The notes beneath the pieces are model-generated. The model was not told the DNA's origin and searched no databases. It saw only the letters and a program-made list of their open reading frames with translations. From Paraspadella gotoi (lineage: Eukaryota; Animalia; Chaetognatha), in NCBI GenBank assembly GCA_051294375.1, contig CM119268.1, positions 10,052,370-10,116,369 on the forward strand: DNA of 64,000 nt, given 5' to 3'. The translations under genes and the position numbers were made by a program. Below, one piece after another: positions 231 to 61,005 of the stretch (position 1 is its first letter; each line of letters begins with the position of its first letter).

Positions 231-1176
231 TCACTTTTTCCGCGCCTTGATAATCCGCAACATCCGACGATCCGGTTCTAAATCTGCTCGCGTCATTAAA
301 GTTTGATTATTGCAAGACGGGACTGGACATCGAAACTCTCCCCTAAATCGAAAAAATATTTAAGAGGATAAAAATATTTAGGGAAAAAATCTCAACTACA
401 TTCTCAGACGAATGCAAAAAACCTGACCTTTGAGCGAGAAGAATATCGACGCCTTGTTCGTCGTAAGTGTGATGGCAAATCTTGTTCTTTAATGGATTGG
501 CAAATGGTTTTCTGTTGACAAAAAAGAAAAAGAAATAAAAATAGCGATAAACGTGTAACAGCCTCAACGTATACCAAAAGCCACCTCGTGATCGGGCAAT
601 TGATGTTAGTTTCTTCCTGCGTCACCAACATGTCATCGTCGTCGTCATCATCGTCTGAATCGTTTACGTTCGCGTTTTGTCGGTTTTCCGGGGCGAGGAC
701 TTCTTTAACCTGTTTTTGAAAACCTCGACTTCTTCTAGAGAGCGCTTGCGAAGTGATAAAAAAAATCAAAGTTTGAAATTTTAAACCTTTTCGATGAATT
801 CCCGCCAGGCTGCCGTCTTTTTCAATTGCTTAGTCTCTGGTCCCTCTCCGCTCAGAACTTGTTGGAACTTGGGTCCAAGCAGGGCTTCCAAGTCGGTGTC
901 CTCGTCGATCTCGTCCCGTTGCGCCAAGTCCCGCGCGGTCTCGACAACGCTCGTCAATTTCTCGCACTCGTCCTCGAATCGAACCCAATCGAGCATCTGC
1001 CGCTTGACCGCTTCGAACACTTCCTTCAGGGATTCTTCCTCCAGCATCTCTTCGGCGACGTCCTCGGCAAGTTGCGTGGTCAAGTCCCTCCCTTGCTTAG
1101 AGATGCTCAACGGGCGAGTGAGGGTACTTCTGGCTTGCATAATTGTGCTGTCTGTGAAATTTATCTGTTTTTCCAT
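231..1176 (-). CDS. NSMCE2: E3 SUMO ligase NSE2/MMS21 (SP-RING), 4 exons
   Basis: Spliced protein has an N-terminal helical region, an acidic linker, then the SP-RING motifs CPITR|KPFANPLKNKICHHTYD and FRCPVPSC. GT-AG introns keep frame. Stop TGA at 231-233. Confidence 0.85.
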
Positions 1177-1497
1177 GGCTCAGAAAAAAGTTACATACGA
1201 CGAGATTTAGTTCTTTGTGTGAAATGAACCTGTTGAAAAGTAACTACCGATAAAAAAGCAAATATAAACCATCATTGGTGAAGAAAGCTTAAATAATAAA
1301 AACTACGAAGACTATACCAGCATATCAAAAAGGAAAGTAATAATAAAACCGAGGAAACTTGTCTATTTTCGATAATTCATAATTAAAATTATTCATTAAA
1401 AAAAAAAAACTCGAAAATGGACGGACTTTTTCGACATTATAATAAGCGATTGAATTTTTATTCGACAAAAATAAAATTTAGGAGTTTTAAAAGGCAA

Positions 1498-59200: not shown

Positions 59201-61005
59201 TAGCGAATCTCGCTGTTTGCTCCTTCGTCCGAATCTGTCGCAGTCACCGTGAGAATAACAGGGCCTGCTTGCCAATTGGCGTCCTCGTCTACATCAATTG
59301 AGTAGACGCGTTTGTCAAATTGGGGAACATTGTCGTTCACGTCTTTGACGTTTATGTTGACGACCGCAGTCGCCGACTTACGCTGCGTTAGGTCGGACGC
59401 CTTGTCGGTGGCTACGATTTCGAGTCGATAGCGTCCAATCTTTTCGCGGTCCAGTCGATATTGCGTCGTCACTTCGCCGTAGATGGGATCGATTTTAAAT
59501 GCCTCATTAGGGCTGTTTGGATTCAACAACGAATACTCTATTTCCGCGTTGCGTCCTTCGTCGTTGTCGGTTGCACGAAGAGTAATTATCGTCGTTCCAA
59601 TTTCCGTGGATTCTAGAACATCGCGATTGTAGACAGAAGACTCGAATAGCGGCGCGTGGTCATTCACGTCGTTCACCTTCACGGTAAGCGTCGCCGTGGC
59701 GCTTTTTCGCGGGGACCCGAAATCCCTCGCGGTGACGCGAAACTGATGTTCGGGCATCGTCTCTCGGTCTAATTCTTTGATGGTGACGATTCGACCCGAG
59801 TCTTCGTCGATGTCGAAAAGCTCTTTGCTTCGTCCGTCTCGAAGGGCCATAAATGAATAGGCCATCTTTCCAGCGAGGCCAGAGTCTGGATCGAATGCCG
59901 ACATTGTCGTGACCAGCGTTCCCACCGGTTCCGACTCTTTGATGTTGGCAAGGTAAAAGTTTTGTTCAAACTGAGGCTTCGTGTTAATCCCAGCGCGAGC
60001 AGCACGACGAAAACGTCGATGAGGAGAGCTTGTTTTCGAGCGAGAAGAAACGGGACGCGTACGGGTGGACTCGGAGGCGGAGAATTCGGGTTCGTTTGCA
60101 AAAATACTAACCGTCAGTTGGATATTATCTCCAATAGGGACGCAGGAAATGCCGACGGGAAAACGGAAGACGAGATCTCTTTTCCCATTGGATTCGAGAC
60201 CAAAGCTACGCAGCGCCATTAGCTTTAACGATGTAACGGACAAGGCTGCGTTTCCGTTCGAGTCGAGAAGTAAGTTCGAGTCCGTGTCATCGTCACTTTT
60301 TCGTTTCTCAGTTTTCGCGGATTGTAAACAACGCCGCAACTCCGCGGGCAAAAACGACCGCAGATCGAGAATTTCTTCATCGCGTGAAAAGCAAGGCTTT
60401 TGGCGAAGAGACGAAGATCTGTATCGAATATCGATGCGATGCAGGTGGCGATTATTGAGATGACTGAGCCGGTCCAGGTGGTGGATAAGTTCATGACCCA
60501 GTTTCGTTTCTCCTCGATGAGTGTTGAAAAAATCTCCTTGACGCGTTTTATCCTGACTCCCACTAGTCTCGCAACCTTCGACGAAGATGAGCAAAGAGAG
60601 TCGGACGCGATTCACCGAGGCCTTTGCGTTATCCGATTCATCCGAGACGAGGTCGACGGAGTGACGCAATGGATTGCACGTCGGCGGCAGGATTGAGCAG
60701 ACAAGCGGCCAGAACTCTGAAGTCAAAATCACGGAACCCTTGACGACGAGAAGTGGCGTCCGGAGCGAAGTGGCGCTCTGGATATGGCAGGATGGATGAG
60801 ACAACTGGGGATGGAACCCCGTCAAAGTGGAATCGAAGACGATGGATTTCGCAGGAGATGATTTTTGTAAATGAATTTCCAGTCCATCGATGGCAGCGAT
60901 GAAGAGTATGAAGAAAATGCACCAAACGAATCGTGGATGGGACAAGCGCCTCGAATTGGCCGCCAAGCGAAATCCCAAGTCTTGGCGCTTGCGACGCGCG
61001 CCCAT
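50211..61005 (-). CDS. CELSR: CELSR/Flamingo seven-pass cadherin adhesion GPCR, 2 exons (61005-55993, 55427-50211), 3409 aa
   Basis: Signal peptide, furin-like RRFRR, cadherin repeats (LDRE, DxNDNxP), EGF, two LamG, laminin-EGF, HRM, GAIN/GPS (CECDHLTTFA), 7TM. Phase-0 GTAAG...TTTTAG intron 55428-55992. Confidence 0.97.
55618..55669. repeat. (GA)n microsatellite
   Basis: About 26 GA units preceded by a short (TG)n run in the CELSR intron. Confidence 0.95.

Follow-up and report, generated by a model that had tools for sequence, protein, structure and literature searches.

The window analysed here, 64,000 nucleotides (nt) of the chaetognath Paraspadella gotoi (contig CM119268.1, positions 10,052,370 to 10,116,369), carries 18 solid genes and a doubtful one, mostly unrelated and all of them on the minus strand and head to tail over 61 kb. 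It is rather likely that this array consists of two to four adjoining operons, the transcripts of which would be resolved by polyadenylation and addition of a spliced leader (SL). The operon reading is based on the shared strand, the short gaps, the continuity of RNA contigs and the cis-spliced junctions that were observed; from these we infer the leader, the promoters and the boundaries of the units. The array appears to behave like an SL-resolved operon, i.e. a system of a known kind, with a size at or past the published limits and with atypical members.

Gene content and strand of the array

In the order of transcription the array comprises CELSR, a triple-SH3 protein, CWC21, synaptobrevin, SCAPER, a CCDC50-like gene, gene 7, an ankyrin-SH3 protein and zinc finger 1, followed by zinc finger 2, a tRNA methyltransferase, COX17, a histidine phosphatase, a coiled-coil gene, beta-secretase (BACE), a D-aminoacyl-tRNA deacylase, a methyltransferase, katanin p60 and an Nse2-like gene. 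The names SH3D19, ASPP, TRMT10C, PGAM5, DTD2, METTL25 and, in part, NSMCE2, which are used below, are presumed from the domain content.

Open reading frames (ORFs) of both strands, taken from stop to stop, were scanned against Pfam. The minus strand contained 193 ORFs of at least 60 amino acids (aa) and 137 of at least 75 aa; in the scan of the 137, 15 genes passed the Pfam cut-off. The Nse2-like gene (zf-Nse, E 4e-5) and the CCDC50-like gene (a weak match, E 0.006) were below it. On the plus strand none of 192 ORFs of at least 60 aa reached the cut-off (four sub-threshold matches); in the long gaps, 43 shorter ORFs of this strand were without any Pfam match. Rfam yielded no match in the window and thus no SL RNA gene, and a leader motif of the chaetognath type occurred there at chance level (two matches, 1.34 expected). 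Full gene models were built for 15 genes, i.e. for all except the CCDC50-like, ASPP-like and coiled-coil genes and gene 7, and all 15 were free of internal stops. Furthermore, each of the 29 joints seen in RNA was a minus-strand GT-AG intron, with a median length of 77 nt.

A previous, sequence-only reading of the window had placed every gene on the minus strand, which was borne out by the Pfam scans of both strands, the RNA joints and the intact models. Its count of about 19 genes held for the 18 solid ones, while gene 7 is doubtful. The chance of 2^-18 that it had calculated amounts to 3.8e-6 and is correct for one starting gene. Among 20,000 genes one would expect 0.04 runs of at least 19 with random orientation, 0.8 if 60% of neighbours share a strand and 10 at 70%. 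Thus the run is beyond chance, yet several adjoining operons could give it. The stop-to-ATG gaps listed in that reading were identical to ours in 17 of 18 cases, the remaining one being off by 1 nt with the stop position used; their median was 382 nt. Thus, as in SL operons, adjacent unrelated genes on one strand are separated by short gaps. Its 142-nt gap before BACE equals the reading of the DNA, but the RNA makes it probably 21 nt (see below).

RNA contigs and splice acceptors at the junctions

The RNA data were contigs from one public run (X1) of one study, in which 0.83 of the sampled words were present; runs X2 and X3, which had short matches, were not used. RNA was examined at 1-19,500 and 34,300-54,250, comprising 16 of the 18 junctions, one of them partly, i.e. 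all but those from the CCDC50-like gene to gene 7 and from gene 7 to the ASPP-like gene. Contig depth served the arithmetic of boundaries and was not used to rank genes. Uncovered stretches were not counted as evidence; these are 18052-18200, the non-repeated portions of the gaps that precede zinc finger 1 and katanin, and 46039-46018. All genes, introns and acceptors given below are on the minus strand.

Ten of the 16 junctions were found within a single contig, two of them crossed through an intron. The largest block was an 11,782-nt spliced contig from 4636 to 18051 with nine genes, from zinc finger 1 to the METTL25-like gene. Three of its junctions were crossed directly by the pieces listed and five via record offsets and depth bins. 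A splice model of this contig matched the record offsets and agreed to within 1.0 with 13 of the 18 depth bins; one bin had 176 unplaced nt and four had extra cover.

The block starts with the C2H2 zinc-finger gene 1 (16560..18135; Pfam, intact model, contig to 18051). A 78-nt cis-spliced intron (16453..16530) leads to the next gene. Its donor is 29 nt past one stop and its acceptor 15 nt before the next ATG; an RNA piece ended at 16452, and the bin depth was 100.4 compared with 100.3 predicted. A short ORF that starts at 16554 is closed by this splice ahead of zinc finger 2. The C2H2 zinc-finger gene 2 has two exons (14378..16437, the last one 14378-14601) and is followed by the TRMT10C-like tRNA m1G methyltransferase (12589..13988), both with Pfam matches, intact models and RNA. 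COX17 (12311..12532) was assigned by Pfam and lies on an unspliced RNA piece (11490-12848). The PGAM5-like histidine phosphatase (10732..12122), the DTD2-like D-aminoacyl-tRNA deacylase (6238..6885) and the METTL25-like methyltransferase (4692..6227), which is the last gene of the contig, again had Pfam matches, intact models and RNA. Counted from its first ATG, the PGAM5-like ORF (11500-12122) carries a long N-terminal extension and totals 400 aa; a later ATG may be the true start, and the 188-nt gap would then grow.

The coiled-coil-like gene (9663..10580) belongs to no known family and was built from ORFs, splice sites and spliced RNA. At 9751-10400 the contig skipped 176 nt more than modelled; no exact GT-AG pair was found there, which may reflect a non-canonical intron or a difference of a single base. 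Between this gene and BACE (7305..9641; Pfam, named homologs, intact model, RNA) is an intron at 9707..9794, whose acceptor is 65 nt before the BACE ATG and whose donor position is uncertain. The depth of bin 9101-9750 was 106.1, compared with 106.3 predicted and 114 if unspliced. Because the RNA skips into acceptor 9707 and thereby shifts the upstream stop to 9663, the gap before BACE is probably 21 instead of 142 nt. The zinc-finger and BACE junctions were both crossed through an intron, so DNA in the library is excluded at these two. DNA contamination as the origin of the long contigs was rejected since they are spliced throughout. A background of unspliced RNA or DNA had about twofold depth in the synaptobrevin intron.

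In the first part of the array a 3,670-nt contig comprised CWC21, synaptobrevin, the complete gap of 1539 nt and the start of SCAPER, and overlapped the SCAPER contig by 30 nt. CWC21, an SRRM2-like splicing factor (44650..45936; Pfam cwf21), and synaptobrevin (VAMP, 43790..44403; Pfam) both had intact models. SCAPER (35072..42250) with its 16 exons was supported by Pfam, 15 RNA joints and an intact model. Its contig terminated in a T10 run, and RNA cover continued beyond. Likewise, the contigs of katanin p60 (1498..3815, 10 exons; Pfam, nine RNA joints, contig-end arithmetic, intact model) and of the Nse2/NSMCE2-like SUMO ligase (231..1176; zf-Nse, three RNA joints, intact model) terminated at opposite sides of a T12 run at 1398-1409. 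These ends look like assembly breaks at homopolymers.

CELSR/Flamingo (50211..61005), the first gene of the array with 3409 aa in two coding exons, was assigned by Pfam, named homologs and an intact model. Its 10,034-nt contig from 49685 passed the acceptor at 49705..49719 unspliced and reached 20 nt into the first exon of the triple-SH3, SH3D19-like gene (46313..49601; Pfam, intact model, RNA contig), which equals its 20-nt overlap with the SH3 contig. The latter started at 49704, immediately past the AG of this acceptor, which lies 103 nt before the SH3 ATG; this end was set by length and depth (51.6 observed, 51.60 predicted). The CWC21 contig ended in the same manner at 46017, again one base past the AG, here of an acceptor at 46018..46032, 81 nt before the ATG, as judged by length. 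Both acceptors are candidate trans-splice sites. The 22 nt between the ends of the SH3 and CWC21 contigs (46039-46018) were uncovered, and the bin depth there, 165.9 compared with 151.9, is unexplained. The katanin contig extended to 3834, which is the G of the acceptor located 18 nt ahead of its ATG. Thus three of six placeable 5'-side ends were at an acceptor, where 1-2% of gap positions qualify, a weak hint from one run, as contigs do not mark the starts of RNAs; the others, 18051 and 60283, lie in coding sequence and 1409 in the T run. A contig would begin at an acceptor if the short branch of a leader was pruned in assembly. We infer that a leader exists; since two contigs start one base past the AG and do not share the G, its last base should not be G.

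Acceptors were scored with a matrix built from 43 introns of the window and compared with dinucleotide shuffles (n = 500). For the 150 nt ahead of each of the 19 ATGs the best scores added up to 126.6 vs. 95.2 ± 9.4 after shuffling (reached in 1 of 500), and for the 150 nt past the stops to 109.4 vs. 98.0 ± 8.6 (39 of 500). An acceptor without a good donor nearby lies 3-32 nt ahead of the ATG in COX17, the coiled-coil gene, the TRMT10C-like gene and zinc finger 1; in the first three the contig passed it unspliced. In the 56-nt gap of COX17 the acceptor is 18 nt before the ATG and there is no donor-like site. In the gap of the coiled-coil gene it is 32 nt before the ATG, with an AATAAA 28 nt ahead of the acceptor. 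Acceptors before downstream ATGs, as expected of SL operons, were thus enriched; donor-less ones were clear at these four genes, and none was present in the 10-nt gap.

Taken together, the earlier proposal of a very long operon or a few adjoining ones stands as far as co-transcription in blocks is concerned, given the contigs over 10 of 16 junctions, one of them over nine genes, and the enrichment of acceptors before ATGs. Of its two versions, that of a few adjoining operons is preferred here, whereas a single 61-kb transcript and the leader are conjectural.

Probable operon units, known systems and rival explanations

In the proposed mechanism RNA polymerase II would read several genes per transcript. 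The upstream gene would be cleaved and polyadenylated, and a capped leader would be joined to the acceptor ahead of the next ATG. The same acceptors may sometimes be used in cis, which would give rise to the two intergenic introns. Where the gap is 10 or 21 nt, the downstream mRNA has to overlap the end of the upstream coding sequence unless the pair remains joined. The stop of the DTD2-like gene is 10 nt before the sole in-frame ATG of the METTL25-like gene (6227-6238), and because this gap holds no acceptor their mRNAs must either overlap or stay joined.

The units are probably CELSR to the ASPP-like gene, perhaps split, the nine genes from zinc finger 1 to the METTL25-like gene, and katanin onward. 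Limits before zinc finger 1 and katanin are suggested because both junctions hold repeated elements and room for a promoter. The element in the 2154-nt gap before zinc finger 1 (18504..19185, no strand assigned) has 30-nt terminal inverted repeats like a miniature inverted-repeat transposable element (inverted repeat I5; many variant contigs). The one in the 876-nt gap before katanin (4102..4643, likewise strandless) was recognised by repeat families D5, I6 and I10, joints and variant contigs. Both may mark unit boundaries. Promoters would be located upstream of CELSR and perhaps in both repeat-bearing gaps. CELSR probably has its own promoter because it is the first gene of the array. Of the two genes that the previous reading had singled out as members, synaptobrevin is inside a bridged block and CELSR stands at the head of the array.

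In kinetoplastids, directional gene clusters form long unbroken same-strand runs of unrelated genes, with a near absence of cis-introns. The array has the same long one-strand run but differs by its many cis-introns, 29 of them supported by RNA with a median of 77 nt. Green algae reportedly have dicistronic mature mRNAs. Those of Drosophila, as far as they are described in PMC2776167, resemble the array, in which spliced RNA runs on without a break over distances of 10-56 nt from stop to start. Yet, the Drosophila and green-algal examples are mostly pairs, and the donor-less acceptors of the array suggest processing at its junctions.

The SL operons of nematodes, tunicates (including Oikopleura, PMC11067885) and flatworms, in the parts of the literature considered, share with the array co-oriented unrelated genes and an acceptor close before the downstream ATG; some junctions have near zero intercistronic DNA, and repeats enlarge some gaps. 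Quoted sizes are 2-8 genes in Caenorhabditis elegans and up to nine in Macrostomum (PMC8629364), and up to seven in Ciona (PMC7986045). The run of the array is about twice the largest of these, and its CELSR groups with protostomes, apart from the deuterostome clade sampled.

For P. gotoi itself the sections consulted of PMC12460157 report that nearly half of the genes are trans-spliced, that 18% are in operons and that an operon holds nine genes at most; functions in development, nervous system and signalling are underrepresented among operon genes. The words 'strand' and 'orientation' do not occur in its main text, and none of six gene names searched was found in its three PDF supplements, the operon spreadsheet being outside this search. 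Chaetognath SL operons are similar to the array in that unrelated genes, most of them with housekeeping roles, follow each other head to tail at short distances. The chaetognath leader forms printed in Table 3 of PMC2481426 all end in A, which fits two contig starts of the array. A further likeness is that the nine-gene block lacks CpG depletion, as expected in the absence of gene-body methylation. Unlike the longest P. gotoi operon, the array has a run of 18-19 genes, with nine in one contig, and includes CELSR, synaptobrevin and BACE.

In Spadella cephaloptera the bacterial artificial chromosome (BAC) 35A21 of 158 kb is, like the array, almost wholly one-stranded: its Table S5 has 24 rows, of which 19 are '+', four, labelled as transposons, '-' and one strandless, and further tightly clustered co-oriented genes are remarked in the passages at hand (PMC2481426). 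No report of a same-strand run of such length of unrelated genes in an animal was found in searches of the open literature, subscription journals being mostly uncovered.

Several observations weigh against adjoining operons resolved by a leader. No acceptor fits into the 10-nt gap. The katanin contig does include the G of its acceptor, unlike the SH3 and CWC21 contigs, and no leader sequence was found among the loose ends listed, which are those of contigs only. Acceptors before ATGs also arise from ordinary introns of the 5' untranslated region (UTR). Moreover, the cis-spliced intergenic introns lie in two of the 19 stretches scored. Contigs join overlapping mRNAs or UTRs as readily as they represent a single transcript, and the evidence is limited to the contigs of one run of one study. 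CELSR, synaptobrevin and BACE contrast with the depletion of developmental, nervous-system and signalling functions in P. gotoi operons, as given in the sections consulted of PMC12460157.

One alternative is that each gene has its own promoter, often within the 3' end of the gene upstream, and that overlapping UTRs of a compact genome were joined by the assembler without any leader. The loose ends listed, among which no leader was seen, agree with it, as contigs do not distinguish overlapping mRNAs from one transcript; the background of about twofold depth could bridge short gaps, and both intergenic introns could be 5' UTR introns. Yet, it leaves the one-strand run of 18-19 unrelated genes unexplained, of which 0.04 are expected per 20,000 genes with random orientation. 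Gaps of 10, 21 and 56 nt are too small for a terminator and a promoter, and the SH3 and CWC21 contigs halt at an acceptor without an upstream exon. Thus we regard separate promoters as quite unlikely. Another alternative is that mature mRNAs remain polycistronic, at least in the nine-gene block, and are translated by reinitiation or leaky scanning, comparable to Drosophila loci and green algae. Here the fully spliced nine-gene contig, intact at every junction, the two cis-spliced junctions and the acceptor-free 10 nt between the DTD2-like stop and the next ATG are in favour. However, reinitiation after long ORFs is inefficient in animals. Donor-less acceptors, one of them close behind an AATAAA, precede COX17, the coiled-coil gene and the TRMT10C-like gene, and three contigs halt at acceptors. 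Polycistronic mature mRNAs therefore seem very improbable.

A single very long polycistronic unit in a genome of trypanosome-like directional clusters, starting upstream of CELSR alone and continuing through the repeat-bearing gaps, would agree with the absence of any plus-strand gene over 61 kb. Besides the ten junctions inside single contigs, three more are in overlapping or homopolymer-bounded contigs, and all 14 rows of named host genes of BAC 35A21 are '+' (PMC2481426), in a table restricted to genes with SwissProt matches. On the other hand, the RNA scope omits the two junctions that link the CCDC50-like gene, gene 7 and the ASPP-like gene, promoters could fit into the gaps of 0.8-2.2 kb, and the operon maxima quoted for P. 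gotoi (PMC12460157) and Macrostomum (PMC8629364) are nine genes. A single unit is thus unlikely, and two to four adjoining operons are the preferred explanation.

Animal operons are described, in the literature as far as consulted, as small, mostly of 2-3 genes with maxima of seven to nine, and as containing few developmental and neural genes. A nine-gene block in a run of 18-19 genes with synaptobrevin and BACE inside it would stretch these limits in size and content, and the internal position of synaptobrevin and BACE would, if true, imply control after transcription. It is conceivable, though doubtful, that much of the genome is organised in trypanosome-like directional clusters, i.e. runs of at least 20 unrelated intron-containing genes, developmental and neural ones included, with few promoters and resolved by a leader; BAC 35A21 of S. 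cephaloptera would be a second hint of this. Should long runs prevail throughout the genome, trypanosome gene clusters would have a counterpart in an animal.

CELSR homologs and minor features

The closest named homologs of CELSR, from a scorpion, Lingula, Owenia and Capitella, were 40-43% identical; no match to the proteins searched came from a named chaetognath. Relatives from JGI, ENA and Logan were closer: P0364 with 60% overall and 87% in the membrane region, and two fragments with 80-90%. BACE relatives from the same sources had 59-63% identity. No CELSR loci of the relatives were found in two metagenome scans. CELSR has 10.2 kb of coding sequence with one intron of 565 nt; the relatives' fragments P0358 and P0266 break at positions suggesting extra introns.

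Three quick trees were calculated with 26, 26 and 20 CELSR homologs picked for taxon spread, without bootstrap or clade test; they contained no nematode, flatworm, tunicate, rotifer, priapulid or chaetognath homologs and a single deuterostome clade. In the first tree the CELSR of the window was outside arthropods and deuterostomes, in the second it was weakly placed beside trochozoans (82). After addition of Nematostella and Oscarella, the third put it within the protostomes (100) but in neither the arthropods (100) nor the trochozoans (99) that were sampled, a position that suits a chaetognath, as does the lack of CpG depletion. A chelicerate affinity, which the top scores had suggested, was rejected by the three trees. 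The observed/expected ratio of CpG was 1.41 in the nine-gene block; in CELSR it was 1.47 for exon 1 and 0.88 for exon 2.

Three genes complete the array. The CCDC50-like gene (28978..34402) was assigned by the sub-cut-off match to CCDC50_N, and RNA depth extended past the SCAPER contig in bin 34300-34965. Ahead of its ATG is an upstream ORF of about 27 codons (34415-34498), and one of its introns contains degenerate telomere-like GGTTAG repeats (31750-31920). Gene 7 (26836..28181) is AT-rich (GC 36.7%) and was drawn from ORFs alone; it belongs to no known family, with no Pfam match and no usable Atlas match for the one ORF tried. The ASPP-like gene with ankyrin and SH3 domains (20290..26300; Pfam) apparently begins past the N-terminal ubiquitin-like domain, which is presumably usual in this family; no such domain was detected upstream. 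An intron of this gene holds a near-perfect 94-nt inverted repeat with arms 2 nt apart (24840-25029), and its last intron about six copies of a 19-nt tandem repeat (20844-20995). A single small repeated element (families D5, I2, I6, I10 and I11) occurs in pieces over the window, at 15-93 in a 3' flank, 4107-4175 in a gap, and 20608-20655 and 43990-44117 in two introns.

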